Part shown: positions 1 to 56,482 of the stretch, piece by piece | Numbering within the stretch: the first letter of the stretch is position 1 | How the letters are laid out: every line of letters begins with the position of its first letter | Assembly: GCA_905178155.1 (NCBI GenBank) | Contig: CAJINV010000020.1 | Coordinates: forward strand, 558,001 to 622,000 | Direction: 5' to 3' | Source: Amoebophrya sp. A120 | Taxonomy: Eukaryota > Protista > Dinoflagellata | Length of the DNA: 64,000 bases | Notes under the pieces: model-generated | Told to the model about the DNA's origin: nothing | Seen by the model: the letters and a program-made list of their open reading frames with translations, nothing else | Database searches by the model: none | Translations under genes and position numbers: made by a program

Positions 1-1433
1 AACGTATCTTCACGCAGGACTCGCCGCGGAGCGCCGGGGCCGCCGCCGCGGGAAGCTGGATTGGGTATAAGTACTTACTCTCACAGCTCGTATGGGTGGC
101 AATTTAAATTCTGCAACACATTGCGGTTCGTCGTCTATCGAACCTTCTATGTACAATTTCAGGATCAGGTCACCTGTACTCGAGGCCGTGTTCTTGTTTT
201 GTTGATAAGTAGTTTTTGGAAGCCACGTTGTCGTTGAAACACGATTTGACGAAAACGAAAATCGAAACCAATTCTCCAGTTCTGTGGCTGGCGCGAGCCT
301 TGGCGCGAGCGTTGCCTCCACGACCGGCACAGCGGCCGCCGCGAGCTACAGCGCCACCGCGTCCGCGCACTTTGGGGCCGCGGCGTACACTATCGAATGC
401 AAATATGTCTGGGTCTGGAAACTTGTGATGCTGAATGGTCGTGATTGACTGCGCCTCAAAGTGCAGTATAGCATGACAAATGTTTCATACGCTTTGTCAT
501 GCGCAGAACGCATTACAAACTGCGCTTTCATTGCATGACGAAATTCTGGCGCTTTATTTGCTGCTTATGCATTACAGATTTTCATTACGAATGCGAAACA
601 TCCAATACAGGTTCAACCTTTCCAGACCCAGACACACTTGCATTTGATATACACGCTCGGGGCGGTGGAGGGCGGGTCGATCGCCACCAGCATCTATCAA
701 ATGCAAATATCCCTGGATCATGTCTGGAAGGATGCAACTTGTCATGCTGTCCTTGGATTCGAAAAAAATCTGTATTGCGTAAGCACCAAAGAGGCATCTA
801 CTTCATGAGGCCCTGCCTCAGAAAATCTGTGATGCTACCGCATACATCACAGACGTCATGGGTCATACAAAAGCTGCATGACAAGTCTTCCCATCTTCCA
901 GACCTCCAGACACATTTGCATTTGATAGCATCCTTGCCGCCACGTCGCTGGGGGCGGCCGGGGCCGTGGTTGGCGCGGGTATCCTCTGCAAAAGTAGCGT
1001 ATTCGTATTGCAATCATGCATTACAAATCTTTTTGTTAAGTCAAATCCGCATTACAAATTTTCTTTCTCATGCGGAGGGAATTTGTAATGCATTTATACG
1101 AGTACGATACTTTTGCAGTGTATAGCGGGCGCGGCGCTGCTGATCAAGAACCACCTGCTCGCGCACGAGGCCGGTAAAGCAGACCGGACGAGCCAGTACT
1201 TGGAATCCGCTCTACACCTGTTCGAGGACTCCCAGGATCCGTTTGGGCACCTGGACGTCATCCTGGGCTTCGACGATGTGGAAGAAAATCGTCAAGCCGC
1301 GCCGAACACCAGTACAACTAGCGAAACTTCCGCTCCTCCGCAAGTGGCGCTGGGCTGGTACGCGATACCCATTTCGCCCGCGGAAGCTGAACGGAGCCAC
1401 AACACAGGGGCAGCTGCACAACCTGGTGGTTGA
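1..1433 (+). CDS. 5'-partial gene, Ala/Gly-rich hydrophobic (glycine-zipper-like) protein; exons ~1-64, 280-390, 655-694, 933-979, 1130-1433
   Basis: One GT-AG intron (65-279) and three introners. The spliced frame is open: ...SWIGSVAGASLG...AAAYTLGAVEGGSIATSILAATSLGAAGAVVGAGAALLIKNH...PGG*. Confidence 0.7.
391..649. mobile_element. Introner element, family A
   Basis: TIR tatcgaatgcaaatatgtctgggtctggaa ... ttccagacccagacacacttgcatttgata; direct repeat tacac at 386-390 and 650-654. Confidence 0.9.
695..927. mobile_element. Introner element, family A
   Basis: TIR tatcaaatgcaaat ... atttgcatttgata; direct repeat gcatc at 690-694 and 928-932. Confidence 0.9.
980..1124. mobile_element. Introner element, family B
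   Basis: TIR tatcctctgcaaaagtagcgtattcgta ... tacgagtacgatacttttgcagtgtata; direct repeat gcggg. Confidence 0.9.
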
Positions 1434-2146
1434 GCTGCAAGTTATTGGACGTCGTTCTCTCTGTCGATAGAAATAATAGAATGGAGTTGTATAAAAATGC
1501 AAATGGCTCGCATGATCATCGATGTACATCTGTGTCGAAAGAAGAGGCACGACTAGGTTTTCTTGTGACCACCTCGAGTCGACTTTTTCTTGATTAAGCA
1601 GTGCACAGTGAGCACGACAGACATTCCTGCCAGTCAATCGCTTATCGTCCATCCAATGTTGCGTCGTCAACGTATCGTACATGGTATTTTTTGTTGCAGA
1701 AACCATAAAGAACATGCACATGGCTTCAAGTATGCAATTCGTTCGTAGGAGTAGGGCAAATATTTGCAGCGTCGCGATGAATCGTATATATTCGTTTCCG
1801 TTCGTGATAGTGATTGACGTTGACAGTGAGCTGCCTGCGTGCCCAAGGAAGATACTCATACGGATGTGTTCCACAACTATTGCAATCCTAAGAAAGTATT
1901 TTGTATTCCACATTTATCCATACCACAGGATCTTTTGAATTTCTTACACTTGGGCTTTGTACAAGTAGTTCAGGATTTGTACTCTTCTAGGTTTCACCTC
2001 CACCACCTCGCTCAAGCATTGTTTCTTGGTTTCAGTCTTTCCAGGGTCGATTGTTTTAAGTCCTCGGATTCGGAAAATCCTCGTGATATACCAGCCCGTC
2101 GAACCTGCCGTCATCGTCATTGAAGGAGGGCACTCACATAGAAAAC

Positions 2147-5865: not shown

Positions 5866-8690
5866 ATGTTGGACTATCATTGGGTTTGGGAGGCCTATGT
5901 CGTCTGTTGTGTTATTGTGTCTGTGATCGTTTTCGTCTTCGTGGCGCAAACACCTTTGTCAACATCGCAAATCGTATCGTGGGTCCTCGGGACGACTCAT
6001 AGCCGACAAGGTTTGCAGATAGCAGCGGACTGCTCGTCCAATTTGCGTGACGTCAATACGTGGCCCAGTCTGGATGGAGCACGCGCACGCGCACAGAGGG
6101 AGAAAGGAGAGCAAGATGAACGGAGTGTGAATCTGGCATCTCGCCCCTCGCATCCCGGAACCGGAAGTGATTTTGACGAGGAGACAAAATTACAAGACGG
6201 TATTTTACTCGGTGGTACACGTGCTGAGTCACGCTTTCCACCAAGTCGCAGCGACACAACGGAAAGAGATGACGGCTCCCCGGGGCTGCGGCAGAATTCA
6301 ACATCGCTCTACGAATCCTTCGACACGTCCCGTCTTGAAGACGACCTCGGCGAGAACGAGTGGAGCAGAGGTGACGCGGGCAGTCTCAGTCAAGCAGGTG
6401 ACGATCTAAATGGTCGACCACACAGAGATGCGGAGTCCTCAAAAAAACCGTGTAAGTCAAACACCTCGCCCGACATGGTCTCCTTCAGCGCAGGTGAATA
6501 TGACCACGCCGCGCTTCCAAGGGGAGCCGCCTCAGACAAACTGAAAGCGAGCCTGAGGCAGTTTTGGGAAAGCGCGGAGGGCCTCGCGTTGCGATCTCGG
6601 CTGCAGATGGAGGCTCTGGAGGAAAAAACAACCGAGCCATACCTGATACGCGACCTGGACCACGCTCTGTGCTTGCGCTACGCCTGGCAGCTGGACGCCA
6701 CGGACCGAAAGGCCGCGCTTGGACCGTTTTTTCCGGCCAAGTACTTTCTTCAGGAGGAGGAGGATGCCAAAGGGGATGAACTCCAAGCACATGCGGCGAA
6801 GAAAATAAATGAGATGACCACAACGCGCAAGCTGAACAAAACCTCAGGTCTCCACCCTGCCTGCATCTACGCGCTGCGCTTGACGCACCGGGCTGGCCGG
6901 TGCGGGCGGGCGGTGTGCAAGCTAGACAACACTGACTGCGTCAAGCTCGGGATGACCAAGCATTTGGGGTTTTCCTGTCAGCATTGCGGGGTGAAAAACC
7001 TCGGAAAGAGAGCGAGAGTGGCCTTTTACATGGAAATGGACCCGGAAAACGTACATGGTGAAAGCGCATTTTTCTTTCGAAAGGAGTTGGACTGCGAGCT
7101 GACGGCAAACATTTACGAACGCTGGCTGAAAAAGCGCGCCTGGGAGGTGTACGGGTTCCCAGTGCAGCACTTGGAATACTTTCCCATTTGTTCAAGTTCG
7201 TCTTCCAGCTCCGGCGCGGCAAGTACTTCAAGTGCAGCCAGATTGTATTATCCGTCATCTTCATCGTCATCCTCGTCTTCTGCAAGCAGGCGTGAAGACC
7301 TATCGCTCATAGGAAAAAACAGCGTTGGTCTCAAGAACTCCAGTCGCAGCAGCAGACGCGGCCCCGCCTCGGTAAGCGAGTTCCAGGCCTATCTTTTACG
7401 AGAAATTGAGGCTCTGGAAACAAACGCGCGCGCCATCCCCGAGGGAGATCTCGACCTGCGGTTCCGGGCTTTTTACGACCATGGGATGTTTCTGCTGCAG
7501 CACGGCCGCTATCCTGTGCAAAAGTATCGCGTGAGTAGTGCCCGCGCTGCAAATTAGAAAACAAAGCGGGCAGGGGACTCGCATAGCGGACCCGTCAGGA
7601 ACGATGCCGCCCGGCTTCGTCCAGATAGTTGACAGCGGCCGCGTCGTTGGTGGCGATTCCGTCTGCGTATACTCGATGCCGGCGCACCTCGTCACCGACC
7701 TGCAGAAACAAAAACCGCGCGAAGGAGGCCTCGGGCTGGGCGGCAACGGAATCGGCTCGACTGTGGTGTTTCCACGCAGGCCGGAGACTGGGGGGCGCCG
7801 CGTTGCGCCTGCTCCCGGAGAACAGAGGGAGGACCCTCGCAGACCGCTGCGGCGGCAGTGACTGCGACGGGGCTGCTAGCCGATTTCGCCACCGCCGACG
7901 GATTCCAGCCGTCCGGCTCCGCCCGCCCGCGGGTTCTTCCTTCGAAGAGTTTGAGGGGCCGCACTTGGCAAAGCAGCAAGCGGCGTGCGCCGACGGCGCC
8001 AGCTTCGACCGCGGCCCCTTTGGCATTTGTCGCCAAGCGGGTGGCCTTCATCGGCGCCCCGTGGCATGCTGCGCCGCCATCGACCCAACTCGCGCCGGCC
8101 AAGCAAAGCGCGGAGGTAGAGCGCTGCCGGCCTGAAGCAATGCACTGCGTGCCCGACGCGTGGAAGATCCTCCGCGCGGTGCTGGACAGTAGTGCCCTGC
8201 CGCTCCTCGCCCTACCTGGAGGGCCTGAGAACTTTCCAGGGTGTTTTGGTCTGCGATGGGGATTTGTTTGCAGTGCAATTGCGCGCATAACTGCGTCTGC
8301 AATTGCGACGGGCGCGATACTTTTGCAACTCATAGCCGCCCGATCTTCCAAGACCACGCGGACCTCGACCTGTCGACGTGCTCATCTAGAGGTTGCACAC
8401 AACGCCTTGACAGATCGGGCGTTTTGGTTCCGGCCCTGCGGTTCGGGCGGAAGTACCGTCGCAGGGGACTGCTGGAGGACGACGATAGCTCTTCTGGCAC
8501 GGAGGCAGTTCGGGATGGGGAACCTCTTTGCGACGACGCTAACGCCGGGAATGATCATGATCCAACCGAACTACAACGCGAGAAGGGCGACGAACTAGTC
8601 CAAGACCACGATCGTGCACCAGGGCAAACTACCCGGAGGAAGATGGGCAAAGCTGCTGTTCGACGCCGGACAGGGTGGGCCGGGAACTAG
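5866..8690 (+). CDS. Hypothetical protein with N-terminal TM segment and a GIY-YIG/T5orf172-like region; exons ~5866-7509, 8340-8690
   Basis: Long ORF interrupted by introner 7510-8334; excision joins LLQHGR|PIFQDH in frame. Hydrophobic stretch YVVCCVIVSVIVFVFV; motif IYALR...VKLGMT...KR...YERWLK...EYF. Start codon uncertain. Confidence 0.65.
7510..8334. mobile_element. Oversized (825 bp) family-B introner carrying GC-rich cargo
   Basis: Left end tatcctgtgcaaaagtatcgcg, right end cgcgatacttttgcaactcata; direct repeat gccgc at 7505-7509 and 8335-8339. Confidence 0.85.
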
Positions 8691-9074: not shown

Positions 9075-12036
9075 ATGACAGCGCCCGCCTTCTCGCGCAG
9101 AATTTTCGACTGGCGCCGGCTCCGCGCAAAGGCGGAGCGGTTTCAGGCGGAGATGAAGTCTGGCGGACTTTTTACCCAGGAAACGGGCACGACCGGTAGT
9201 GCAAGAACCAGTAGCCCCCGCGTAGTACTACAAAGAACGCCGCCACGGCAGAAGTTCCAGTTGCCGAAGATGAGGGTTTACACGCACTCCTCCTACACGA
9301 TGCCCCTGCCCGCGAACCACCGATTCCCGATGCACCGTTACAAGGCGGTGCACGCGCACCTGGCCGAAATTTTGTCGACCAAGGGCGCTGCGTGGACGGT
9401 TCCACAGGAACTACTCGAAAATGGCACGGGAGGCCATGCAGCTGCTTTCAGTGGTCGTGAAGTCGTTGAAGATGAAGAGGAAGACCGCAACGCTGCGACC
9501 CTGCGGCGCGCGCTCATGTCCCCGTTGACTTCGTCCGTAGTGGAGGGCCGCGACTTGAAAAACGCAGGAACTACTACGCTTTCACCGGTAGAAGAAACAT
9601 GCCCGCTCGACGTAGTTCAGGGGCGTGAAAGAGATCCTGCTGCACAACTGCGAGAAGCGCTACCCTCCCCAGACGCGCTTCTCCGCATCGACACCGATGC
9701 GCGGCTTGCGACGCGCGAGGAGGCCGAGCTGATCCACGAGAAAAGTTACATCGACGCGTTTGAAGCGGGCGAGATCCCCACGCGGGCGCTCGGATTTCCC
9801 TGGTCGCCGGCGCTGGTGGAGCGCACCTACCGCATTCTGGGTGGGACGCTGGACGCCGTCGAGGACGTGCTGCTGCAAACAGGGCTGAAGAGGTTCAGCT
9901 TGTTGGGAGATCCTGTTGATACTACAGGAACTACAAGTCTTCACGAAACGAGGCGAGATGAACAAGCCTCCTCCTCCTTCTTCTTTGCCGGCGGCAACCT
10001 GGCCGGGGGAACCCACCACGCGTTTCCTGGCTCGGCGGAAGGTTTTTGTGTATACAACGATCTGGCGGTGGCTGCGCGCTACGCACAGGAATTGTTATTG
10101 GCTGTTCAATATGCATTGCAAAAGTATCGTACTAGTATAAATCGCAATACAAATTTTTCCAGAAGAAAGAATCGAATTTGTAATGCTGATTCGGCTAAGA
10201 AACAAGATTTGTCATGCATGATTGCGATTAGTTTTAGTACGAGTACGATACTTTTGCACAGGATATTCAACATTGGGACGAAGGCGAAGGTCGTGGTGGA
10301 GGAAATGAAACAAGAAGTGGAGACGATGAGGATGAAGCGCAAGCGTTTTGTCGAAGGGTACTTCTGGGAGGAAAAGGAGGACGACCAAGAGCAGCTGCCG
10401 CACCAACAGAGGGTGCACAATCAGAACGAAAAAGCATGAAGATGTTGACGAAGAGGAACAAGAAGCCACAAAAGTTACAGGTGGTTATCATCGACGTGGA
10501 CGTTCATCTATGCACTGCAAATGCATCGTACTCGTAGTAAGTATTGCAATACAAATTAGCTCAGCATGAGAAATGGAATTTGTCATGCTGATTTAGGTTG
10601 AAAAAGAAATTTGTCTTGCATGACTTTGACTGCGATTAGTACGACTACGATGCTTTTGCGCAGGATATCATCAGGGCAACGGCACCGCTGCCTGCGTCGC
10701 GGAAGACCCGTCGATTTTGACCTTTTCCCTGCACTACGAAGAGCAAATACAACTTCATGTCTGGGTCTGGAAAGTTGGAACTTGTCTAGTAGGCTAGCTT
10801 TACATACATAAACGTAATTCCTGAGTGGAAATCAATATTTATATTGCATCTGAAAACCAACAAAAGTCGCAGGAGCCTCTTCTGTGACGCAGTTTCTGTA
10901 TCTGTTTCCTTTCTTTGTGGACTGCCTGTGCTTTGTGGACCGCCTAAAAAGTTTTAGCGCTCTGCATAAAATGAGAAAGCGTTCTGAACAGAAGTTGTCA
11001 TGCTGGGCTGCTGCTGCATTCGGAAGTGTTTCCGTCATCCACATTTTTTGAGCATCACAGAATTCCAGACTCCAAGACGTATTTGCATGTGATATGCACG
11101 CCGAGCGCAACTACCCTTTCGGCGACCGGCGGCGGACCAGCGACGTGGAGCGCAACGTGGACAACACCGTGCGGGAGCGCGAGTATTTGCTCGCGCTGCA
11201 GGACGGACTGCGGGAAGTGGACGACAAACTCGCCGCGGTGGGTAAAGCGGGAGGCACGCTACTAGCAGATGATGGAAAAAGTGCGACCCCTGGTGCAGGA
11301 GATCAAGTACAACAAGAACAACCGCAGCTGCTCGTTCTCTTCCAGGCAGGTGTGGACCCGCTCGCGGAGGACCGGTTAGGGAAGCTAAAACTTTCCCGTG
11401 GCACTATGAAATGCAAAAGCATCGTACTAGTAGAAATCGCATCACAAATTTCCTCAGCATTACAAATTTGTAATGCTGATTTGCCTTGAGGAAGAAATTT
11501 GTAATGCATAAGGGCAATTACTACGAGCGCGATACTTTTGCACAGGATAGGGACCCTGTGGAAACGAAATCAGCTGGTGCTCGATTGGGTTCTACGCAAA
11601 AGTTCAAACGAATCTCGCTATTGCACACGTATCAATGAAGTTGTCCGGTCAAAAATTGAAATACGAAAAGTATTTATGATCTTTCAAGTTGAAAGAACAT
11701 GTACATGATGATGATCACGGAGCTGTAAAAAATTCTATATTTGATGCGTTCTACTTCGTGCCCCTCTGCACACCACCCCGTGAAGGTTCAATGAAAGGTT
11801 CAATTATGATGATGATGATGATGATGATTCTTGATCTCACCACGCAGAAGTCTTGGAATTTTTACGAATGCTGCGATAGTAGTTTTGCATAAGTATACCT
11901 CCGACGGAAGAACGCGCCAGTGGTGATCACGATGGGCGGAGGGTACTCTCGACCAATCGACTTCTCGGTGAAAGCCCATTGCGATGTGTACCTGCAAGCT
12001 GCGGCGGCAGCCTGGGGGTCGTCGTTTTCGTTATAA
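9075..12036 (+). CDS. Zn-dependent histone deacetylase-family protein (HDAC11/AcuC-like)
   Basis: Spliced motifs HRFPMHRY, AGGTHHA..EGFCVYND, IIDVDVHQGNGT, FSLHAERNYPF, FQAGVDPLAEDRLG and ITMGGGYS. Four introners plus one degenerate intron (~11589-11895, exact borders unclear). Confidence 0.9.
10110..10265. mobile_element. Introner element, family B
   Basis: tatgcattgcaaaagtatcgtac ... gtacgatacttttgcacaggata; direct repeat ttcaa. Confidence 0.9.
10509..10667. mobile_element. Introner element, family B, splitting the HDAC DVHQG motif
   Basis: tatgcactgcaaatgcatcgta ... tacgatgcttttgcgcaggata; direct repeat tcatc. Confidence 0.9.
10735..11094. mobile_element. Introner element, family A (diverged)
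   Basis: tacgaagagcaaatac...gtctgggtctggaa ... ttccagactccaagacgtatttgcatgtgata; direct repeat tgcac. Confidence 0.85.
11405..11549. mobile_element. Introner element, family B
   Basis: tatgaaatgcaaaagcatcgtac ... gcgatacttttgcacaggata; repeat ggcac/gggac. Confidence 0.88.
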
Positions 12037-12798: not shown

Positions 12799-14693
12799 AT
12801 GGACGCGGCTTCGACCGAGCTGTGGATCGGCGTGGGTGTTGCCACAGCGGTGGTGATACGCACTGCAAAAAAATATCAGTCTGGGTCTGGAAAAGTTGTC
12901 CAGCACCATCTTATTGAGGTTTTTTGGGGACCACTACTATCTTCCCCACGTGTGACGCTGTAGACCACAGTCGCAATTTGGCTATGGCAAAATTACCCGG
13001 GATGATGATGATATTGGACGATCTTCTATGCAGCTACACAGATAATTTTCGTCTTAGCTCGAAGGACGCATGATGCGCATCTTCTTCACATCCAGACCCA
13101 GAGCACATGATTTTTTGCAGTTCATATTTCGCGGTAGTAGTTGGGTATCTTTTGTTCTTTCACGACAAGGCTGGCACTGCTCCCCTCCCTGGGAAACTTC
13201 TGCAGAGCGGAACGTTCCAGCTTCCGTTGGTAAATTTTGACGACGAAATATCCAAGAAAAAAACTGTGTAGGTGTAACTTTGTTGGAAGAGCGGCGTCAC
13301 AAATTCGCTTCGCATTACGGGGAAGACCTGTCATGGGCAGCTAATACGTGAAAACACGTATGAAAGTAGCCTAATATGTATGACGCAGACTGACCGGGCT
13401 GGCTGCATGACAAGTGTTATCAGATTTGCATTTTCTGCATCACAGGCTTACACTCGTCACACAGTTTTTTTCTTGCATACGAGAGTTTGGTCGAGGAACG
13501 GCAGCGGGATTTCATGCGCACCTGCGCGGCGCAAAAGGACTTGCACTTTCTGGTGCTGAAAAGAACAATAGAATACGGGAAAAATGAAGGGAAAGTATTA
13601 AAAACCGAGCTGAAACTGCTCGAGCTCAAGGACACGAGTTCCTTTGCCGCCTGTATGACTTCCTTGCGGGAAGCGGACTTCTTCCAGACCGAGGGCGCCA
13701 AGCTATTCCAGGAGAGCGGCGTCTACAGCTTAGTGTCTGCCACCACGCCGTTCGACTTCAGCATGAAATTTTATCAACTGTAAATATGTCTGGGTCTGGA
13801 AGGATGCAACTTGTCATGCTAAAAAGTCTGGACTGGTGTGAAAAAATCTGTGTTGCATGGTTATCAAAAGTTGTCCACTTTTGACCAATTTGCGAGGAAG
13901 CCTCTCAAACGGGCTCGGCACGACAGAGACCTCACAGAGTCTGTCATGCTTTGTCTCGCATTCCAGGCCTCATACGTCATGCAAAACCTGCTCCTGCATG
14001 ACAAGTTTACACTCTTCCAGACCCAGACATATTTGCAGTAGTTAGTTCCACCGGTGGACATAATAGCATGTTTTTAATCTCTCTCTACATAGTGCATCCA
14101 CGTAGTTCTCTTTTCTTTTCTTTCTTCAAAAAGTTCAAGTCGTTCTCTTCCCTGTGCTGTACCATGGTCTTGTTTCCAGACAAAACACCAGACATATTTG
14201 CAGTTGATAAATTTGGCGTCATACCCATGTTCCACGACCCAAAGTACGTGATCCTCTATCACGAAGACACTAAGCAGTTTCAGGTATATTTTGTAATGAA
14301 GAAAATTTTCTTTTTTTCATTTGAGATTTCACGTGGGATTCGGATTGTGAAAAAACTCATGATATGAATGTAGTGAACCTTCATGATGTAGTGAACAATT
14401 TGATTCGACTTTCGAATGCGCTACGGTTGCTTCCTTGTGACCATCAAAAAAGAAAATATTGTGTTGCAAAACTATGTAACAATTATGAAACCCAGATACT
14501 TTGGGGTGCGTGGATCAATGACAAAGCCGAGCCGGTTCCCGCCAACAAAAGATGGCCGTTTTTCGTGTGGTACGTGTCGCAGCCGCTCGGAATGAAGCCG
14601 CCAGCGGAAATCTCCTTTTCGTATGGAGCAATAAGAAATACCAAGGACAGTGTGATGAAAAACATTGAGGTGGTGTGTGCCGAGATGTTCTGA
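12799..14693 (+). CDS. Hypothetical membrane-anchored protein; three introners and one GT-AG intron (14284-14495)
   Basis: Spliced frame is open: MDAASTELWIGVGVATAV..AVVVGYLLFFHDK...NFDDE|SLVEERQ...SMKF|GVIPMF...QFQ|ILWGAW...CAEMF*. Confidence 0.7.
12857..13126. mobile_element. Introner element, family A, with decayed direct repeat
   Basis: tacgcactgcaaaa..gtctgggtctgg ... ccagacccaga..ttttttgcagttcata; flanks ggtga/tttcg; frame restored by removing element + 5 nt. Confidence 0.75.
13249..13479. mobile_element. Introner element, family E
   Basis: tatccaagaaaaaaactgtgt ... acacagtttttttcttgcata; repeat cgaaa/cgaga. Confidence 0.85.
13772..14209. mobile_element. Introner element, family A, with a second internal right end
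   Basis: tatcaactgtaaatatgtctgg ... ccagacatatttgcagttgata; direct repeat aattt; extra right-end copy at ~14015-14044. Confidence 0.85.
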
Positions 14694-22009: not shown

Positions 22010-23489
22010 TTGCAGAATCGCATCGAGGATGACGGATTTCCTGAAGACTACCCAAGGTCGCCCGGGCAGGTGCACCTGCAGGCCGAGAATTACCGGCGGG
22101 AGGTCATTCTTCCGTCGGAGGTCAACTGTCAGAAAATTGTGGCCAAGCCGTGTCGGTGCCCCTGGGAAGAGAAGCAGTTCAATGCGCTGTGCCGAGAGTT
22201 AGAGGAGGAACTACTAATAAAAAAGCTTCAAGAATTATGTCGGGAGCAGAGCAACAAGGGGTATGCGAAAAATGTCAATGAACATTCTTTTTGTTCTCAG
22301 CATCATCAAGAAAATCACTATCATCGTAGTACAACAACCATCAACCTAAGAATCCCCACCGTCGACCACACGACGAGAAGAACACAGCAAGCTACAGTGC
22401 CTCCAAGTGGACGATCACGTCGACAAGAGAATCCAGCCTTAATTCCAACGTACTCCTTTGACGCCCCACCGTCGCAGCAGGTGCAGTACTGCAGGGACAA
22501 GGGCCGGTGTGTGCGTACGCGCTTGGACCGAGCCCGGGGGGATTTCGTGCAGGAGATGTTCGCGGTGCACCCGAAATTCCTGGTATGAGAGTACAAAACC
22601 CCCCTGCTCCCCCTCGTCATTTGTCATGCAAAACCCCAAAAAATAAAAATCTAACTCTAAGACTAAGTGCATCCCTGTGGCACTGTTTATTGCATGACAG
22701 ATTCCGGAAGTAGCCAAAACAGTACGACACTCGGCGCATGAATTTGTCATGCATCCTCGGCTCCACGTGTACTGTACAGGTGTTTGTATTGCTGTTCATG
22801 CAAAATGTAGTAAATAACAAATGAGGGAAAAGGGGAGTTGTGCACTCTCATACCTGGGGAAGGGCATCTCGCTGGAGTACACCACTTACATCTTCGAGGA
22901 TATGGAGGTGTCAGAATCGAAATTGACAAAATCAAAAAATTTGTGATGCACAAAATCGACACCAGTTGGAGCCTCAGTTTGTAAGTGGCGCATGACAAAT
23001 TTCGGGAGCACCCAAATCCCGTCTGTCATGCTGTTTGGGCAAAGAACGCTGCTCCTGTCATGCTACTCGCGCAGCCCATTGCATACCCCTAAACAGGCTT
23101 CCAATCGGTCTCATTTGCCTGCTCCCCAACACAGGCCTTACGTGCCCTACATTTTATGCATCACAAATCATTTTGATTTTGTCGATTTCGATCCTGACAC
23201 ATCCATAGAGGAAAATAAAGACTCGTTTGAAAGTATTTTCCCCGGCGCAACCCCCCTGGAGCGGGAGAGCCGGAGCAGAACGTTTCAAGCCACGACACGA
23301 AAGCCGAACCGGCCGCGGTTGCAGATCGAGGTTACCTTACGGACCGAGCACGGGTCGCAGGCCCAATCCGTCCCGATCGTACGCAAGGATAACCCGAAAA
23401 AAACCGTGCTCAACCGACACAGCAGCGGGGTGCGAGTCCGGATAAAGGCAATTGGGGCGGAGATCGCGTTTGTGGACCTGCATTTGTGA
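22010..23489 (+). CDS. Hypothetical protein with two introners; start uncertain
   Basis: Spliced frame ...VHPKFLG|KGISLEYTTYIFEE|NKDSFESIF...FVDLHL*. Confidence 0.6.
22584..22852. mobile_element. Introner element, family C
   Basis: tatgagagtacaaaacccc ... ggggagttgtgcactctcata; direct repeat cctgg. Confidence 0.88.
22901..23207. mobile_element. Introner element, family D
   Basis: tatggaggtgtcagaatcgaaattgacaaaatc ... gattttgtcgatttcgatcctgacacatccata; direct repeat gagga. Confidence 0.92.
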
Positions 23490-44980: not shown

Positions 44981-45534
44981 CAAATGAAAATAAATATAGG
45001 ACGCTCCATCACAGCCTCTGTTCAAGTAGAACATCAAAGCAAGGGCAAGAACTTCTGACTCTTGTTAATTGAGATTGAAAGTAAAATTATCCAAAAACAC
45101 TTGCCTTCTTGTCCATCTTCATCCTTGCTTCTTCGGGTTCTAGGCTACTACATTTTTCTGATCTTCATGATGATGATTTGTACCAAAATTTACAACCAAA
45201 AAAGCTGTCGGACAGCGAGTACCAAATCGTGGAATTGTATGAAAACGCCGAACGCTATCACAATCGTGTGTCATAGCGATCGCATTCCGAATAGACTGAG
45301 ATGAGAAAGCGTCCCCTTGAATGTGGTCAGTTTTATTTCATGCCTGCATGAAGAACATGAAGATCAACACATTACTTGTGTGCCTCGGTGTGACGCGTTG
45401 AGCAAAAACTTGTACCGCAGAAGATTGCTGCACTTCTACTTATAGCCGTGTCTTTATGTTTGTGAATGTGATGCAAAGTTGCGCCGCAATGTGAATAAAC
45501 TAACAGTGGTAGCGTCTATTGTCGTTGCGATAAA

Positions 45535-47020: not shown

Positions 47021-50000
47021 ATGTCTTCGCTTCGCCGTTGGTTTCAGTTTCTTTCCCTTTGCACGAGTTCTTATGCCTTGATGTTCTTTTCAGCGTGTAG
47101 TGTTGCTTTCTTGTTCGGCGTAGCCACGCCCTCGACCAGCGCGGCTGCAACAACTCCGCCGTCGGAGAAAGGAGCAAGCACGGCGAAAAGTAAGAACACC
47201 AAGGAGATCAAAACTCCAGTAGTGGAGGACCACACGACCATCCTGCCCGACCTGGTCGCGCACCTGCGCAACGGCAGATGGGACAAGGCGCAGCAGGCCG
47301 CGCAGCGGGTGCACGCGCTGAAGAAGAACAAGCAGAAGATTGTGCAGGTGGTGCAGGACAGTGTGGCGGACACGAAGAAAAAGGCCGATGAGCTCCTGCT
47401 CTACCTAAACCGGCAGTTTGCCATCCCGGACGAGCTGCCCTGCGCGTCCCGGTGGGCGCAGAATGGCACGCACGTGCTGCTGCAAGTGCGGTTCGGAAAG
47501 TCGTGGCAGGGGCACTCCGCCCACTGGGGCCAGCGGTACAGCACGAAGGGCGGCGAGGGCTTGATCGAGCAGAACGCGCAGGGAATCCAGGAATTGTTGA
47601 AAATGGACCTGACTCCGATCAGCGGCAAGACCAACCACGCCTTCAGTCTATCCATCGTGGGGCAGATCGGCACCAAACGCTACAAGTTCGTGGTGCCCGA
47701 AACGGAGCTCTTCGCGGAGGTGCACAGCCGGTTCCGGCACGAGATAAGCTTTCGCAACGCGAAGGGGTCCATGCAGATGAGCCGGGGGGCGCAGCTGCCC
47801 GAGCTCAAGCTGTTTTTCCAGAAGAAATATGCGTTCGCAAAAGCATCGTACAACTCGTAGAAATTGCAGTCATGCATGACAAATCTCTTTCCAAATACTT
47901 AACCTGAAACAGCATCATAAATTCCATTTTTTTTCTTTCTGAAATTTGTGATGCGATTCATACGTAGTACGAGCATGCCTTTGCTGTGCATAAGACGGTC
48001 CGGAACTTCTTCTGGTCCCGCTTCTCCAAGGAGGAGCATCTCGTCCAAGAATACCTCGCCTCCACGAGCACCACGACCACCACGACGACGACAAAAAAGA
48101 AGAAGCGAAAAGGGAAGCAAACCACCGCCACGACCACCACGACCAAGTCACCGATGCCGCTACCGGAGTTTTCCATCGGTCTCCTCGACGTTGTGGAGGA
48201 CAATGTGGAGGAGAGCTTGGACCTCAGCGGCATCACGCCGGACGTGCACCTCGCGCGAAACAGCGGGCCCGTGTGCGCACCTCTAATCTACTGTCCGATG
48301 ACAGACATGTGTGTGGAGAAGTGCGAGCTGTGTACTAGTACTAGTAGCACAACAAGAACTTCTAGCACGTCGAACAAAGTGTTCCAGGGCGTGTGCGTGC
48401 CGAAGGAAAAGCCGAAAGTGGACTGCAGCAAGGCGAGGTTTGTGGATTGGAACCTGCAGGAAAAGAAGATCGCTGGCGTTCTCATGCTCGACGATGTTTT
48501 GGGCCGGGACGACATTTGGACCTCGAAGAGCGCGGTGGTGCGGGAGGGACAAACAACAAGGAGTTCTAAAGAATCACAAAAGGTAGAAAAGGCGGTAAAA
48601 CCAAGCCTCCTCCGTCTGGACACGCACACGCAGCACTTGTCTCGCGAATGGCTGCTGCAGACGGCGCAGTTCTCGCAAGAACAACTACCTCCGAAGAGCA
48701 GTGCGAACAGTGCCACTACAGAAAACGAGCAGAACCGTCTCCACACTGCATCTTCAGATGACAGGACCAAAGCCGGTCATGAAGTTGTTGTACTAGGCCA
48801 AGAGCAAGACACTAAGAAACTTCTCGTCCCTCCGTACGTTAGCCGAATCGGGCTGGAGGTGGAAAATGTTCCCTTCGTCAGTGTGGATCTGGAATTTTTG
48901 GAAGACGACCACCGCGTCTCTTGCGAGAGCATCCCTGTCCACGACCGGCTGGTGATGCAGCTCGGCATCGTGGAGCTCAACGCCTTCCACGACGAAAACC
49001 CGTTGGCGGACGCGCTGACGGGCAACCTCACCCTGCACGTCTCTGCTATGGAAGCGTCAGGTTTGAAATCGTCAAAGTTGAAAGAATTTGTAATGCATAA
49101 AATGCATGACCCGAGGCGCGTGTGTTGCAGAGCAGGCAAGTGAGGCCGACTGTAAGCCTGTTTGGGGTGACAGCTCGAGCTGCTAAAGTAGCACGAGAAA
49201 ATCGCTCTTCTTTGCCTAAACAGCATGACAAACTGGATTTAGGGACCGCCGAAATTTGTCATGCGCCACTTGAAAACTGGGCTCCAACTAGCATCCATTT
49301 TATGCATGACAAATTATTTCAACTTTGTCGATTTCAACTCTGACACATCCATATCTGACCGAAAAAACACGCACGGTGTTCACGTCTACTTCTCGCGCGG
49401 GGGGGCGGACGCCACGAAGATTGAGCTGCCGGAGCCGGAGAGCTTGTTCATCTTTGGGGATAAAGATGATGATGGGGAGAAAAAAAGTGAGCAGGAACAT
49501 CAAGCGCTTGAGGCGAAACAGCGGCAAGTCCAAAACATGCTCCTGCACCCCGAAGCGGCGGCGGCCGTCCGCGAAGACCAGGAGCAGCAAAATTCTGCGA
49601 GGAACTCGGCGGGCGACCAGTCTTCACCTCCCACGTGGCAGTACGCTCCCGGGGGCATGGATACCAGCGGGAGTAATTATGCGGGGACGAAAAAGGGAGG
49701 AAAAATGAACAACAGTAGCCCAAAAATTATGCCCGCGTTGCGATTCGAGCTCGTCGATAATGAAGCTGATGAGCAAGCAGATCGTAAAAATGCTTCTCCT
49801 CGCCGTCAGGACGTCCCGCAAGCTTTCAGCTTCTCCGGGGGAAAGGTGTCCTTTGTGTCAGAGGAAACCGACACACGCGGTCTCGGCTCGGCGACGCTCA
49901 CGTTCCGTCTGGAAAACGTAACCTTCGCGCGGGGTGCGACGCACTGGACGGCTTTGCCGTACCACCGAGACGTCGAGGGCGTGAACGAGCGCTCGGTCGC

Positions 50001-51667: not shown

Positions 51668-54600
51668 ATGTCCTCTACGTCGACTTTCGACCAAGGCGTG
51701 GTCCCGGGCAGCGGGGCGACCCAGACGACGTCCTCAGGCCCTCCTCCATCGGGAGGCGGTGGTGGAGCGACTCCGCCCGGAAACTCCAATTCCTTCCAAG
51801 GCGAGCAGCCGACACTGTTGACAACCCCTGGAACCTATGCATTGCAAATATGTCGGGGTCTGGAAACTTGTGATGCAAGGAAGGGAATGGTGCGCACATT
51901 GTAATGCGCTGCCCAGCATGACAGGTTTTTCCGTGGTTCTGAGTTGCGTAATCCGCATTAGAAACTGCGTTTTTGCGTGGCAGACCAGAGGAGCTCTTCG
52001 CGGCCATGCAGTACAAAGTTCAGAGTCATGCCAGACTAGCATGATAAATCTCGCAGTCTCCCAGACCAAGACACATTTGCAATGCATACAACATCGGCGC
52101 CGTCGAGAAGGTCCATGTTGGGGGACCCGACCCGGTCGGGCCACCCAGGGCACTTACTGCGGGACAGCAGTAATGCGATGGACAATGACAAAGATTTTCT
52201 GCGCAGATCACGCTCCTCCGCCAGAAACCTGGCAGTCGTCCATGTCATGTCGAATGCCAGCGAGGGTGTCGGCAGTCTGCCCAGCTTTCAGCCCGGGTTG
52301 TTAAACAGCACCACGGTGGGGGACCATCATCATCTTCACGCAGGAGACCACTTGCATAGTCCTCCAGTGAAATTGACGCCGCGGGAGCGCATGCTGGCCG
52401 TGATGGACGGGAAGGTGGTGCAGACGGTGATGACGTTGCTCACGGTTTTTGCCCTGTATGGTGACGATTTGAGGATGAAGTTTTTCTTTCTCCGGCACGA
52501 CATTGGGTTCTACGTGCTGTACACAATCACCTTTTTTCTTTTTTCCGCGGAACTGACCATTTTCTCCGTCTGCAAAGAGGATTACAAGTACAGAGAAAAT
52601 GTTTTTGTTTCATTCTGATTTTGCTGTTGAAGATGTTGGACCATTATGATTTTCGCGAAGCTCAAGAATTTTTTCATCAGAAGATTGATCATTCCGATGC
52701 CGATCTCTCATACATTGTCACGATGAAAAATTTCTTCACAAAAACGTAAATCAAAAGGTACTCTTTCTTCTTCTGGCTCGACATGGTCGCGTCCATGAGT
52801 ATCCTCCCCGACATTAAATGGGTAATGGATTTCGTTTCCGGCCTTTTTGACGACAGCCAGGGCGGGGCCGGCAGCGGGCAAACGGGCGTCGCGCGCGCGG
52901 GGCGCGCAAGTCGGGCCGGGACCAGGGCGGGAAGGATTGTTCGTATCCCACGAAAAAAGTGTTACAGTTACACATTTGCTGTAGCTTCAGCATCACAAGT
53001 TTTCTCTGCATGACAAAGAAAACTTGCAATGCAAAGATCATAAGGGAAAACGGGAAGAAAACGAGGCTCCAAAGCATTTCCTGCATGAGAAAGGTTGTCT
53101 GTGTTGCGGATCTTGCAACACAATGTGTAACTGTAACACTTTTTTCTTCCCATAGTTCGGTTGATTCGTCTAGTGCGGTTACTCCGCGTAGTGAACATTG
53201 CGAAATTCTTTTCGAAGGAGGAGCAATCCGCTTTGGATAAGATGAAGTCCAGCAAGGGCGGCATCACCCGCGAGGGGATGCAGCACAGCATGAGCAAAAA
53301 TGCTCAGACTAGTAGTCCCGGGTCGAATAGCAATGAGAAGCGCGTGGAGGCGAGCCGGTTGGGGAAGATTCTGTCCGAGCAGACCACGCGTACCGTGATT
53401 CTGGGCGTGCTTTGCATGATGCTGGTCCTACCCATGATCGAGTTGGAAGAGCCGAACCGTACCCCGACCTTCGGGCTGGAGCAAATTTTCTGGATCGGCC
53501 GCAGTTCCTGCAGTCCGTACGCGGATTTCGTTTCCGCGGGCCTGCAAAGTGACGCCGCTTTGCAGTGCAGCACGACCATACCCACCGCGACGGCCAACGC
53601 CACCGTGTCCGCCTCCACCTGGATGGCGGTGGAGGGGTTCAGCTATCTGCTCTACGCGTACACAGAGCAATCTAGGTTCTATTTGGGCGAGCTCACGGCC
53701 GCGCTGGCCCGACCCATTTTGTACATGGCGGTGCCGAACACGCTCGGCGCGCCGATCCGCTCGCTCGACTACGTGGTGACGAAAAGGTGCGACAACAACG
53801 GAAATCTAGAGTACCCCTTTCTCGGCTGGCAAGAGGACTTTGACGCGCAGGGGGGATGGGTAAGGAGAGACACTGCAGCATAAGAATAGACACTGGGGCT
53901 TCTGGCATAGAATTTCAGTTAGAAACGACATTGAGGACTACATCATTGATGACGCTGAAGTTATGAATATGTTGCTTTCAAAATGAGCAAAAAATAAACT
54001 TCACACTTGAACTCAAAGACCGCCGATTGCCAAGCGGCGCGCGCCCAGGGTAAGTGCTGCTTATCAAATGTAAAAGTGTCTGGGTCTGGAAGAATTCACG
54101 TTTGTCATGCTTGTCTGGCATGACTCTTAAATCTGTCATGCACGTTACCCAAGAGCTCCGTTTTTCTGTGCTGCAGAAGCGCAGTTTGTCATGTAGACTA
54201 GGCAGCACCTAGGAGCTCAGAAACTTCCTTGTCATGCTGAGCCAGCATTTGTAGCCTCATCATGAGACGCCACCCAGCATCACAAGTTTCCAGACCCAGA
54301 CATTTTTACATTTGATACTGCTGGCAGAGGCACAAATACTGTGGTATCGGGGAGGACCAGGAGAACTGTCCCTGGCGGGATACAGAAATGGAGGACGTTA
54401 TGGATGAGTCAGGATCGAAATCGACAAAATCGAAAAATTTGTGATGCATGAAATGTAGGCCACTGAAGGCCTGTATTGGGGAGCAGGCAATAAACGAGAC
54501 CGATTGTAAGCCTGTTTAGGGGTAATATACAATGTGCTGCCAGACGAGTAGCACGACAGGAGCAGTCTCATTTGCCCAAACAGCATGACAGACTGGCTTT

Positions 54601-56482
54601 GGGTGCTCCCGATAAAACTTGTCATGCGCCCCTTGGAAACTGAGACTCCAACTGCCATCGATTTTGTGCATCGCAAATTTTCCGACTTTGACAATTTTGA
54701 TTCTGACACTTCCATAGCCGTGGCTTTTTCGCCGGCGGAAACCTGCCCAGACGGAAGCTCCGAAAAACCGACGGAGCTGAGCTCCTCCTGCACCCACGTG
54801 ACGGTCTATGCGAAGGTTATATGCATTGCAAAAGCATCGCACTCGTCGTCGTCGCTTGATTTGTAGTAGTGGTGCAGGAGCATGACAAATCTGGCTTTCA
54901 ACTTGAATCTGCATGACAAGCTCGAGTTCAGCTTTTGCGGTGAATAATTGCTGAACCGGAGCAAGACGGAAACGACCGCGGAGTACTCCATGATCCAAAC
55001 GACGTTCATTGTCTTTCTCCTTTATGCAATGCAAAAGCATTGTACTAGTACAAATCGCATTTACAAATTTTCTCAAGAAGAAAAATGGAATTTGTAATGC
55101 TGTTTTACCTTTGGAGGAAGATTTGTCATGCATATTTGCTGCAATTAGTACGAGTACGATACTGTTGCACAGCATATCCTCGGCATTGGGGCGATGATGT
55201 TCTCGAAAGACACCCAGCAACTGGTCATTTCCCCGATCGAGAAGATGGTGAACATAGTGAAACAACTCGCCGATGTATTCAAGAAAAAAACGTTGTTAGT
55301 GTAAATTTGTGATGCTCAACATGCAAGATGATTGCTTCTGTCATGCTTGGCATGCGTCGCAGGGTCCATTAAAGGCCTTTTTCACGTACTATCTGCGCAT
55401 GACAGGTTTTTGCTGTCATGTCAGACAAACTTGCAATGCTGTTCCTCCAAAAAAGTTACACCTACAATGTTTTTTTCTTTGATACGATGACCCCTTGTCC
55501 AAGCCGAGCACGCAATCTGGCGGCTACATGGATGACGGGGAAGACCACACCTCCGGAGCTGCACATGCCGCTGCGGCGCAGAAGAAGCAGCAGTCGTCCG
55601 GGAATTCCCAGCTTGAAACTAACATGCTGGAGACGACGATCCTGAAGATCGGAGGGCTCCTCCAGGTCGGGTTCGGGGAGGCGGGCGCGCAGATCATAGG
55701 GAAAAACATGAGCAGCCAGGATGGGGAACTCAACATCCTGATTCCGGGACGGATATGCAGATTGCAAGAGCATCGCTTAATCGTACTGTACGTAGAGTTT
55801 GCATCATCTTCACAGACGTTTGTGAATAGGAAAGCTACGGAATTTGTGATGCGGAATCGCGTATAAAGAGCACATTTGTCTTGCCAGAGCGCACAATCCA
55901 ATTTATATATAAAACTACCAATGCGCTACTTTTGCAATGCATAGCGGAAGATCTACGGCATTTTTGGTTTTTGCTTCATCCGCGAATTCACCGACACGAC
56001 CGAGTGCTTGCTGGAGGAGGTGATGGTGTTCGTCTATCCTCTGTGCAAAAGTAGTGTATAGGTGCTAATTGGAATTTTTGAAGGACAGCATGACAGATCT
56101 GGTTTCCTTCGTTTTTTCAGAATTACAAATCGAATTTTTCCTACTTTTGAAAAATTGTGATGTTGCAGCTCGCAGTAGTACCCGAGACAACTTTTACTTT
56201 TGCAATGCATATCGTGAACAAGATCGCCCGCATCGTCCACATCTGCGTTCACGAGTGGGCGGGCGCGGCGAACAAAAACATCGGGGACTCCTTTTTGTTA
56301 ACCTGGATCGTGAACGATCTCGAGGAGCAGAAACAGATGGCGCGGTACGGCTACGACAAGAACGAAAAGATGCAGGACTTGAGCGACAAAGCCTTGATTT
56401 CCTTCGTCAAAGTCATGGCGGAACTCCGACGAGCCTCCGACCTACGCGCCTACACCAGCCACCCCAAGATTCAGCAGAAGTT
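51668..56482 (+). CDS. Ion-channel-type (AC-alpha-like) class III nucleotidyl cyclase, 3'-partial
   Basis: Spliced motifs ALYGDD, FFFWLD, RAGRASRAGTRAGRIVRLIRLVRLLR (S4), PIEKMV, KIGGLLQVGFGEAGAQII, IPGRK..IFGFC, ANKNIGD. Nine complete introners and GT-AG introns 52588-52757 and 53860-54018. Remainder lies beyond the insertion starting at 56483. Confidence 0.88.
51836..52088. mobile_element. Introner element, family A
   Basis: tatgcattgcaaatatgtcggggtctgg ... ccagaccaagacacatttgcaatgcata; repeat gaacc/caaca. Confidence 0.87.
52944..53154. mobile_element. Introner element, family E, splitting the S4 helix
   Basis: tatcccacgaaaaaagtgttacagttacacatt ... aatgtgtaactgtaacacttttttcttcccata; direct repeat gttcg. 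Confidence 0.92.
54062..54317. mobile_element. Introner element, family A
   Basis: tatcaaatgtaaaagtgtctgggtctggaa ... ttccagacccagacatttttacatttgata; direct repeat ctgct. Confidence 0.92.
54399..54716. mobile_element. Introner element, family D
   Basis: tatggatgagtcaggatcgaaatcg ... gattctgacacttccata; repeat gacgt/gccgt. Confidence 0.9.
54820..54946. mobile_element. Introner element, family B (decayed)
   Basis: tatgcattgcaaaagc ... gcttttgcggtgaata; flanks ggtta/attgc; frame restored by removing element + 5 nt. Confidence 0.72.
55023..55176. mobile_element. Introner element, family B
   Basis: tatgcaatgcaaaagcattgtac ... gtacgatactgttgcacagcata; repeat tcctt/tcctc. Confidence 0.88.
55276..55484. 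mobile_element. Introner element, family E
   Basis: tattcaagaaaaaaacgttgt ... acaatgtttttttctttgata; direct repeat cgatg. Confidence 0.9.
55754..55943. mobile_element. Introner element, family B (diverged)
   Basis: tatgcagattgcaagagcatcgc ... gcgctacttttgcaatgcata; repeat acgga/gcgga. Confidence 0.85.
56035..56211. mobile_element. Introner element, family B (diverged)
   Basis: tatcctctgtgcaaaagta ... tacttttgcaatgcata; repeat tcgtc/tcgtg. Confidence 0.85.

Follow-up and report, generated by a model that had tools for sequence, protein, structure and literature searches.

Non-canonical introns have already been described in Amoebophrya sp. A120 and A25. In their account of its introns, Farhat et al. 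2021 (PMC7789003) report RNA-seq-validated non-GT-AG borders for more than 60% of introns, A120 inverted-repeat motifs that start with TAT and form hairpins, a mean size of ∼240 nt, strain-specific families and direct repeats of 3-5 nt, with a 5-bp example shown. According to the same account, U1 snRNA is absent from an otherwise near-complete spliceosome, no minor-spliceosome snRNAs are reported for Amoebophrya, and where the intron border lies with respect to the hairpin is left open (1-5 nt in Fig. S23). The family descriptions of Gozashti et al. (PMC12130899) comprise 58 A120 families, mostly labeled ‘TIR DNA, superfamily unknown’; most of their splice sites were scored as non-canonical, and TSDs of 2-5 nt were detected automatically. 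In euglenids, circular products and late removal have been shown for nonconventional introns, as summarized in PMC11282704.

We analyzed a 64,000-nt stretch of the Amoebophrya sp. A120 genome (the window), in which elements span positions 391-56211. The sequence was scanned for elements with TAT..ATA ends whose arms scored 10 or more with gaps allowed and whose flanks agreed at 3/5 positions or better. The scan yielded 24 hits, corresponding to 23 distinct elements, while 10 first-order Markov resamples gave 0-2 hits each (4 in total). Six further elements (10735-11094, 12857-13126, 45238-45532, 54820-54946, 56035-56211 and 30797-44712) were identified via RNA joints or by eye. Altogether, 29 TIR elements interrupt coding sequence between 391 and 56211 (Table 1). 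The first-pass annotation had described 28 complete insertions in five TIR families; the insertions and families A-E are indeed present, but the count becomes 29 and at least one further type (45238-45532) has to be added.

The transcripts were represented by RNA contigs from runs X3-X6, which derive from one sample, and the genomic DNA by contigs from run X1. The locus is present only in assembled contigs, the raw RNA runs X9 and X10 giving 3 and 2 reads, respectively. The RNA contigs have zero cover over 37000-44336 and skip ordinary introns, and are therefore RNA-like. In addition, P0001, a public protein under the name of Amoebophrya sp. A120, matches the product of the window with 100% identity; over 53623-56483 it can be aligned exon by exon and shows exactly the element junctions.

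Table 1. TIR elements in the window, with flanking repeats (left/right copy where both are given) and supporting evidence; a slash within protein motifs marks a junction.
Family	Position	Strand	Length (nt)	Flanking repeat	Support
A	391..649	+	259	TACAC/TACAC	scan; junction in 190-codon ORF
A	695..927	+	233	GCATC/GCATC	scan; ORF continuity only
B	980..1124	+	145	GCGGG/GCGGG	scan; ORF continuity only
B ends, 825-nt body	7510..8334	+	825	GCCGC/GCCGC	scan; junction in 756-codon ORF
B, HDAC gene	10110..10265	+	156	TTCAA	scan; junction in 610-codon ORF; RNA contig piece ends at 10104, just before repeat
B, splits HDAC DVDVH/QGNGT	10509..10667	+	159	TCATC	restored stretch, Pfam
A-like, TAC start, HDAC gene	10735..11094	+	360	TGCAC/TGCAC	ORF, fold
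B	11405..11549	+	145	GGCAC/GGGAC	scan, ORF
A-like, TAC start	12857..13126	+	270	decayed (1/5)	frame kept only with +5
C	13249..13479	+	231	CGAAA/CGAGA	scan, ORF
A; second A-type right end inside, at 14044	13772..14209	+	438	AATTT	scan, ORF
A	18245..18554	+	310	CGACC	links 917- and 1093-codon ORFs; RNA contig piece ends at 18239; DNA contigs cross both borders
E	22584..22852	+	269	CCTGG	scan; wholly inside a DNA contig; RNA record length fits loss of 269+5 nt
D	22901..23207	+	307	GAGGA	scan; RNA contig piece begins at 23208
A, orientation opposite to 18245	25842..26112	+	271	GATCG	scan; RNA piece begins at 26113; record length fits 271+5 nt
B	30424..30569	+	146	ACAGA/CCAGA	scan, ORF
Composite, B left and right ends	30797..44712	+	13,916	CCGGT/CCGGT	RNA joint; 477-codon ORF
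Sixth type, weak TIR	45238..45532	+	295	AATTG/AAGTG	RNA joint 45235>45536, 4 runs; registers 3-5
B	47828..47992	+	165	AGAAA/AGACG	RNA joint 47826>47997, unambiguous, 4 runs; register 4
D	49047..49353	+	307	TCTGC/TCTGA	RNA joint 49041>49354, 4 runs
A	51836..52088	+	253	GAACC/CAACA	RNA joint 51831>52090, 2 runs; registers 1-4
C, splits S4-like RIV/R/LIRLVR	52944..53154	+	211	GTTCG	RNA joint 52938>53155, 1 run
A	54062..54317	+	256	CTGCT	RNA joint, 3 runs; P0001 spans
D	54399..54716	+	318	GACGT/GCCGT	RNA joint, 3 runs; registers 2-5; P0001
B, repeat lost	54820..54946	+	127	GGTTA/ATTGC	RNA joint 54818>54951, unambiguous, 3 runs; register 4; P0001
B	55023..55176	+	154	TCCTT/TCCTC	RNA joint, 3 runs; P0001
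C	55276..55484	+	209	CGATG	RNA joint, 2 runs; P0001
B	55754..55943	+	190	ACGGA/GCGGA	RNA joint, 3 runs; P0001
B, in cyclase catalytic domain	56035..56211	+	177	TCGTC/TCGTG	RNA joint, 3 runs; P0001

The previously claimed TA(T)..ATA ends and 5-bp direct repeat, decayed in some copies, were recovered: all 58 termini start with TA and 56 of them with TAT, position 4 being C or G in 55, and the flanking 5-nt repeat is perfect in 16 elements, matches at 4/5 positions in 9 and is reduced to 3/5 and 1/5 in two elements each. The TIR arms of the scanned elements have at least 15/20 matches. In predicted folds, all 28 elements folded have 10-20 of their 20 initial nt paired to the terminal 25 nt, compared with 0-3 in five other introns. 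Families A-E have clearly distinct arms; the A120 IR motif (TAT, ∼7 variable bases, at least three A) fits families A, B and C, while for families D and E the agreement is limited to TAT(G). Elements of 127-438 nt contain no long ORF of their own, and the set combines the MITE traits of TIRs, a fixed-length target duplication, many copies, both orientations and lack of an ORF. No transposase domain was detected in the window ORFs scanned. The constant 5-bp duplication and the TAT ends could plausibly reflect a single type of transposase that cuts with a 5-bp stagger.

The elements were said to lie in coding sequence, with the frame restored by removal of the element and 5 nt, and this description holds throughout: when the 29 elements (+5 nt) and five other introns are removed, all 29 junctions fall inside long plus-strand ORFs (190-2214 codons). 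In a cruder one-at-a-time removal, +5 beats +4 or +6 in 24 of 28 cases; the misses at 51836, 55754 and 56035 are resolved by RNA joints, and that at 10509 by the restored ...DVDVH/QGNGT... stretch. The junctions inside the HDAC motif DVH/QG and the S4 motif IVR/LIR are likewise as described. The HDAC exons are collinear by Pfam (profile positions 26-137, 153-172 and 226-252), with E-values of only 0.06 and 0.03 for the two short exons. The junction at 56035 corresponds to residues 323/324 of P0001, inside its Pfam Guanylate_cyc match (302-498).

All 13 readable RNA joints (12 joints and the loose end 30791>44713) skip exactly the element and 5 nt. The removed elements span both orientations, five or six families and sizes from 127 nt to 13.9 kb, and in families A, B and D the copies lying in opposite orientations are removed without exception. 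The GT..AG introns 44975-45204, 50044-50237 and 53860-54018 are absent from the same contigs. For 11 of the 29 elements (391, 695, 980, 7510, 10509, 10735, 11405, 12857, 13249, 13772 and 30424) the support comes from ORFs or homology only, and for four (10110, 18245, 22901 and 25842) a single side of the joint is displayed. At the RNA level, the elements behave as introns, without GT-AG and under a common end rule in both orientations. Three findings named beforehand as refuting this reading did not materialize: RNA contigs lacking the elements stand in place of mature mRNAs retaining them, these contigs reveal no cryptic GT-AG use, and, instead of being untranscribed pseudogenes, the host genes have transcripts and an annotation. 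A contig of run X5 keeps the whole 45236-45535 region at a depth of 5.6, compared with 27-66 for spliced contigs, which indicates that the elements are transcribed.

Sequences eliminated from ciliate genomes have TA...TA ends and are excised exactly with one repeat copy. The elements resemble them in both respects, which would be in line with DNA-level excision in the expressing cells, the RNA mirroring a rearranged template. Such excision is very improbable, however, since X1 DNA contigs cross the element borders at the depth of the unique flanks (∼42-48), element-retaining RNA contigs exist, and there is no empty-site DNA contig among the joints listed. Direct repeats around a stable hairpin are also a classic substrate of template switching, and the elements have this very layout; the joints could then be artefacts of reverse transcriptase switching between repeat copies across the hairpin, or assembly jumps, with mRNAs keeping the elements. 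This explanation is scarcely credible, because the joints 47826>47997 and 54818>54951 share zero letters and still have the same register, the spliced contigs are deeper, and retention would disrupt every ORF along with the conserved domains of HDAC and cyclase.

The borders themselves agree with the earlier claim that no register gives GT-AG, as GT..AG was found in 0/29 elements across all six registers, and the U2-type GT-AG class was rejected on this ground. Among other border pairs, GC..AG, GA..AG and AT..AC occur in one register each, and the sole GC..AG register belongs to an element supported without RNA. U12-type introns have RTATCCTT as their 5' site, with a branch-site box close to the 3' end. 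An assignment to the U12-type AT-AC class was also rejected, as only some ends read N-TATCCT and the opposite ends (TATGCA..) are spliced too.

The decayed repeats made it possible to place the cut. We denote as register 4 an intron of 1 nt, the element and 4 nt (-1/+4). Mismatched repeat copies permit only this register at 47828 and 54820; seven other joints permit registers 3-5, 2-5, 1-4, 1-5 and 0-4 (the last in three cases), leaving register 4 as the sole one common to all 13 joints. The elements are thus probably cut in a single register, 1 nt ahead of the initial T and 4 nt past the final A, as judged from one window and one RNA sample with two exact and four uninformative joints among the 13. 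Identity of the repeat copies is not needed for splicing. Register-4 introns start with N-T-A-T-(G/C), which sets the TAT of the element at intron positions +2 to +4, and the normal introns of the window start with GTATAA, GTATAG, GTAAGG and GTATGT. Nothing conserved marks the 3' site besides its distance from ATA, and no AG, polypyrimidine tract or branch signal emerged on non-systematic inspection. At 52944, 56035 and 45238 the outermost arm bases are unpaired in the predicted fold and the cut position is unchanged, so the base of the hairpin as such may not be the ruler. As both orientations are spliced, the symmetric ends must carry the signals. The -1/+4 register is also the one in which insertion at nnAGG would give a perfect AG/GTAT...AG/G intron.

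These are copies of the published A120 introner elements, TAT...ATA TIR sequences with a 5-bp target duplication, which are lost from RNA as the element and 5 nt; that this occurs through cuts at fixed offsets, with a U1-less spliceosome as the predicted machinery, we consider reasonably probable. In the proposed scheme, a non-coding TIR transposon copy would insert into a coding exon and generate the 5-bp duplication, the U1-less spliceosome of the parasite, being less strict about intron ends, would remove the element and 5 nt, and the terminal hairpin may aid removal. For spliceosomal chemistry as such, we see an even chance. The TAT occupies the same positions as in normal GTAT.. starts, hence a relaxed spliceosome that reads some of the sequence is no less likely than pure geometry, while the absent 3' mark is awkward for a spliceosome.

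The introns could instead be removed by dedicated non-spliceosomal machinery: guided either by the hairpin at the termini or by the TAT/ATA ends, an endonuclease and a ligase would cleave at set distances and seal the exons. Its tRNA-type version was rejected: in a bulge-helix-bulge the exon flanks pair as a helix between two 3-nt bulges, but the flanks here are direct, not inverted, repeats, and the -1 and +4 offsets are asymmetric. In favor of dedicated machinery are the lack of GT-AG in any register, removal independent of orientation, the fixed offsets with no need for repeat identity, and the strong terminal pairing of all folded elements. In addition, PMC7789003 concludes that another mechanism than the standard one should be at work, and the TIR-bearing introns of euglenids leave as circles by an unknown route (PMC11282704). 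This possibility is nevertheless rather unlikely. Such machinery would need to handle introns in the tens of thousands, as PMC7789003 counts 29,850 repeated introns in A120, and the -1 offset puts TAT where normal 5' splice sites have TAT or TAA. Moreover, the same IR/DR layout is given there for 15% of A120 GT-AG introns, which suggests that one machinery handles both.

Returning to the spliceosomal reading, it is conceivable, though we hold this tentatively, that one ruler on the TAT/ATA termini cuts all A120 introners (1 nt upstream and 4 nt downstream) regardless of family, orientation and size, that the target duplication plays no part, and that the U1-less spliceosome reads N/UAU(G/C) as the 5' site and finds the 3' site by distance rather than by AG. 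If true, this would turn the splicing mechanism into a concrete rule testable with mutants. Of the first-pass annotation's central inference, the common end rule without GT-AG in both orientations is borne out by the RNA joints and is already covered in PMC7789003; a single mobilizing enzyme and a single excision machinery reading end geometry rather than the conserved TAT/ATA sequence would reach beyond the joints seen.

The longest intron is a composite: 30797-44712 holds a 13.8-kb nested insertion (30922-44678), and 30791 is followed directly by 44713 in RNA contigs of X3, X4 and X5. Its removal with only two element ends intact is a clue to the mechanism, although this RNA could derive from cells without the nested insertion.

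By comparison with known systems, the elements are the introner elements of Farhat et al. 2021, found in the same organism. They share with them the A120 genome, hairpin-forming IRs of 8-20 nt or more, direct repeats and loss of non-GT-AG introns from RNA. Since the TAT start, 5-bp repeats, hairpins and non-canonical splicing are already presented in PMC7789003, the finding was known, and there is no difference in kind from the elements described there; here, decayed repeats point to one register. About two thirds of the parasite's introns are removed without GT-AG, and three clues from the window narrow down how this may happen: one register fits all 13 joints, including two without repeat identity, both orientations are spliced, and a 13.9-kb composite is removed. 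Among the families detailed in PMC12130899, those of ∼150, 255 and 305 bp agree in length with B, A and D; fam160, whose intron begins 1 nt ahead of the element and extends 4 nt past it, corresponds to register 4, whereas fam183 (3 nt before, 2 nt after) corresponds to register 2 and differs.

The nonconventional introns of euglenids, as characterized in PMC11282704, share non-canonical borders, TIR end pairing, TSD-like repeats, a likely MITE origin and lengths of tens to thousands of nt, but differ in lineage and in their end motifs (CAG/CTG at +4..+6 and -8..-6). In Fritillaria borealis, as outlined in PMC11282704 and PMC7789003, many introns are non-GT-AG, thought to be MITE-derived and removed by an adapted spliceosome, which by analogy is the model we lean towards for A120; its introns mostly have one border pattern, AG-A(N) (PMC7789003), whereas in the A120 elements the two bases at either end of the intron are free to vary. 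Finally, canonical introners (Micromonas, Aureococcus, Polarella and others) are likewise intron-creating transposons, several of them with TIRs and TSDs, but they carry or co-opt GT-AG sites, unlike the A120 elements described here.

The + strand genes of the window (64 kb, about 52% G+C) are split by short elements with terminal inverted repeats (TIRs), which confirms the first-pass annotation in its observation of such elements in coding sequence. Scanning for TAT...ATA ends with a gapped arm score of 10 or more and flanks equal at three or more of five bases yielded 24 matches, representing 23 distinct elements; in ten resamples of the window from a first-order Markov model the counts were 0, 0, 0, 0, 2, 0, 0, 0, 1 and 1, and at a stricter setting 10 Markov resamples yielded none. 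The reversed sequence (7 matches) was dropped as a null in favor of these resamples, because reversal preserves inverted repeats. Six further elements came from RNA joints or inspection (see table). The final list thus contains 29 elements between 391 and 56211, one more than the 28 counted earlier. Among the 58 termini, all start with TA, 56 start with TAT, and 55 have C or G as the fourth base. The two 5-nt flanks are fully identical in 16 elements, and agree at 4/5 positions in nine, 3/5 in two and 1/5 in two. The five proposed families (A to E) were recovered by arm and body similarity, together with at least one further type at 45238. No Rfam match was found over the window.

Elements added to the scan results, and lengths of the element families
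Feature	Position in window	Length	Remark
Added element	10735-11094		starts TAC
Added element	12857-13126		starts TAC
Added element	45238-45532		weak arms
Added element	54820-54946
Added element	56035-56211
Added element	30797-44712	13.9 kb	composite
Family A		about 230-440 nt
Family B		about 127-190 nt
Family C		about 210-230 nt
Family D		about 307-318 nt
Family E		269 nt

All 29 elements lie in the coding sequence of + strand genes, and self-comparison revealed no copies of families A to E in the few intergenic stretches of the window, which suggests that genes are favored or that copies outside them have been lost. Two elements depart from the simple layout: a 438-nt family A element (13772-14209) contains an additional A-type right end, at 14044, and the B arms of an 825-nt family B element (7510-8334) flank an extended, unrelated body. 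Nesting or rearrangement probably explains both copies; removal with +5 preserves the reading frame in each.

When the 29 elements, each with 5 nt, were taken out together with five other introns, all 29 junctions fell within + strand ORFs of 190 to 2214 codons, including nine within one 643-codon ORF and four within one 610-codon ORF, in line with the frame restoration claimed for element plus 5 nt. With elements tested one at a time, a procedure too crude at short exons, +5 was preferred over +4 and +6 in 24 of 28. Three of the four exceptions carry direct RNA joints; in the fourth, 10509, the string ...DVDVHQGNGT... is produced by +5 and destroyed by +4. Both motifs cited in the first-pass annotation, HDAC DVH^QG and cyclase S4 IVR^LIR (^, junction), are as described. 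The HDAC exons match the Pfam profile at 26-137, 153-172 and 226-252 in collinear order, two short exons being individually weak (E 0.06 and 0.03). GT-AG borders, likewise said to be missing, occur in none of the 29 elements in any of the six repeat registers; GC..AG, GA..AG and AT..AC are found in one register each.

Removal from transcripts was analyzed in four contig sets of one sample (X3-X6), guessed to be RNA from their behavior only; none of the listed contig sets is on record as RNA. These sets have zero cover across 37000-44336 and skip three GT..AG introns (44975-45204, 50044-50237 and 53860-54018). Twelve further X3-X6 joints in 37000-56999 each remove an element plus exactly 5 nt, as expected from the proposal that the elements act as non-canonical introns. 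In X3, X4 and X5 contigs, thirty letters matching 30762-30791 precede 44713, hence the RNA joins 30791 to 44713; this skip equals the entire 13,916-nt composite plus 5 nt, and a 477-codon ORF crosses the joint. In 9000-28999, repeat-driven joints of X1, a DNA-like set as is X2, dominate among the joints listed, and X3 joints are visible only as piece ends: X3 pieces end or begin at 10104, 18239, 23208 and 26113, in each case at the repeat beside one of four elements. The lengths of RNA records 12 and 13 fit the loss of E+5, D+5 and A+5 plus introns of 302 nt and 163 nt. Eleven elements (391, 695, 980, 7510, 10509, 10735, 11405, 12857, 13249, 13772 and 30424) have ORF or homology support without RNA. 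The raw RNA-seq runs X9-X11, dated 2026, carry the same species label; over 20 kb, X9 contributed 3 reads and X10 contributed 2, a scarcity probably due to another strain or to dominating host reads.

RNA record 12, by its length, and the reading frame suggest that the 302-nt intron occupies 21703-22004. GT and AG are present but 2 nt out of register, leaving CG..AG, GG..GC or GT..CG as border options; it may be a decayed element with a TAC start.

The same joints could arise if the elements were excised from DNA, a reading we disfavor: X1 contigs cross element borders at a depth of about 42-48, one of them holding a whole E element, so the DNA keeps the elements, and RNA contigs with elements exist. 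Introns are still present in lower-depth RNA contigs, X5 record 11 covering all of 45236-45535. Among low-depth RNA contigs, 44945-45233 (7.1) retains a GT-AG intron and 45227-45565 (5.6, X5 record 11) the 45238 element, spliced contigs having depths of 27-66; both are likely unspliced precursors.

A public A120 protein, P0001 ('unnamed protein product [Amoebophrya sp. A120]'), was found by searching with the 233-aa exon 53161-53859, to which it is 100% identical. Its first 412 residues align mismatch-free to nine exons between 53623 and 56483, whose borders coincide exactly with the RNA joints; in the public annotation the elements are therefore introns already. The cyclase assignment rests on P0001, where the Pfam catalytic domain occupies residues 302-498 and spans the 56035 junction; none of five single exons of this gene had a Pfam match, and a PDB sequence search with a 101-aa exon gave none. 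The remaining 234 residues are encoded nowhere in the window, which implies an intron of more than 7.5 kb at 56483. Another TAT-start element begins there, directly after the last mapped exon, and the intron includes a G+C-rich region (56-64%) that has inverted repeats of its own at 63584-63813.

Where the repeat copies differ, the RNA shows from which copy each base came. We define the register as the number of repeat bases left from the upstream copy. Elements 47828 and 54820 permit a single register, with four upstream-copy bases and one downstream-copy base; seven others permit registers 3-5, 2-5, 1-4, 1-5 and, three times, 0-4, and four are uninformative. Register 4 is the only one common to all 13 joints; by a rough hand estimate, such agreement would arise under random registers with a chance of 0.01-0.02. 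At 11405 and 13249 both register alternatives are synonymous in protein. Reverse-transcription artefacts as the source of the joints are disfavored, given that the 47828 and 54820 joints lack shared letters; for the same reason, the duplication itself appears unused. Families A, B and D each include copies in opposite orientation, all of which are removed, so the signals must lie in the symmetric ends.

The TIR observation and the shared end rule are already in print. The parts of Farhat et al. 2021 available to us (PMC7789003) give 66,565 RNA-validated introns for A120, about two thirds non-GT-AG, and 29,850 repeated introns in 1954 families; its introner elements have 8-20 nt inverted repeats, with motifs of TAT, seven variable bases and then A's, and 3-5 nt direct repeats (5 bp in Fig. 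S19). The same text reports that U1 snRNA and a minor spliceosome are absent and concludes that the splicing mechanism is unknown; according to its Fig. 3 legend, where the border lies relative to the hairpin 'remains unknown'. Gozashti et al. 2025 (PMC12130899, likewise in part) list 58 A120 families, of which most are classed as 'TIR DNA, unknown'; their splice sites are predominantly non-canonical, and the automatically called TSDs measure 2-5 nt. Our literature search, with most subscription papers outside its scope, found no later mechanistic study. A small, testable addition, from one window and one RNA sample, is that the intron probably consists of 1 nt + TAT...ATA + 4 nt.

In register 4 the introns start N-T-A-T-(G/C); ordinary introns of the same transcripts start GTATAA, GTATAG, GTAAGG and GTATGT. 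Insertion into nnAGG would, in register 4, create a textbook AG^GTAT...AG^G intron. We favor, at roughly even odds, a relaxed, U1-less spliceosome that would read N^UAU(G/C) as the 5' site and would place the 3' site according to how far it lies from the ATA end or the hairpin. A serious, though less likely, alternative is a dedicated endonuclease plus ligase that would read the hairpin, a route suspected for the nonconventional introns of euglenids in the accessible part of PMC11282704; the lack of a conserved 3' signal supports it. The termini pair in predicted folds of 28 of 28 elements, compared with 0-3 of 20 bases in the five other introns. Elements with unpaired outermost bases in the predicted fold are cut at the same offsets nonetheless, and sequence and structure are thus not separable here. 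The earlier interpretation, that one mobilizing and one excision machinery read end geometry rather than splice dinucleotides, is partly supported: the elements are removed from RNA without GT-AG and under one common end rule, and the single machineries and a reading of geometry apart from end sequence are conjectural.

The composite at 30797-44712 is a family B element with a nested 13.8-kb insertion (30922-44678), bounded by a 10-nt duplication. The insertion has 829-bp direct repeats (30930-31758 and 43850-44678, 99.6% identical) and a 1863-codon ORF at 34757-40345, whose product has no Pfam or PDB match up to E = 1. Its Atlas neighbors are weak (0.91, 146-162 shared features), with GIY-YIG and RVT clusters weakly among them, on which basis the insertion may be a Penelope-like retroelement.

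Family B (and C) elements have one end reading TATCCT or TATCCC, as at the starts 980, 7510, 30797, 52944 and 56035. Taken with its preceding base, this end resembles the U12-type 5' splice site, whose consensus is RTATCCTT. The elements differ from U12-type introns in that A120 has no minor spliceosome according to the available part of PMC7789003, and the opposite element end, TATGCA, is spliced too.
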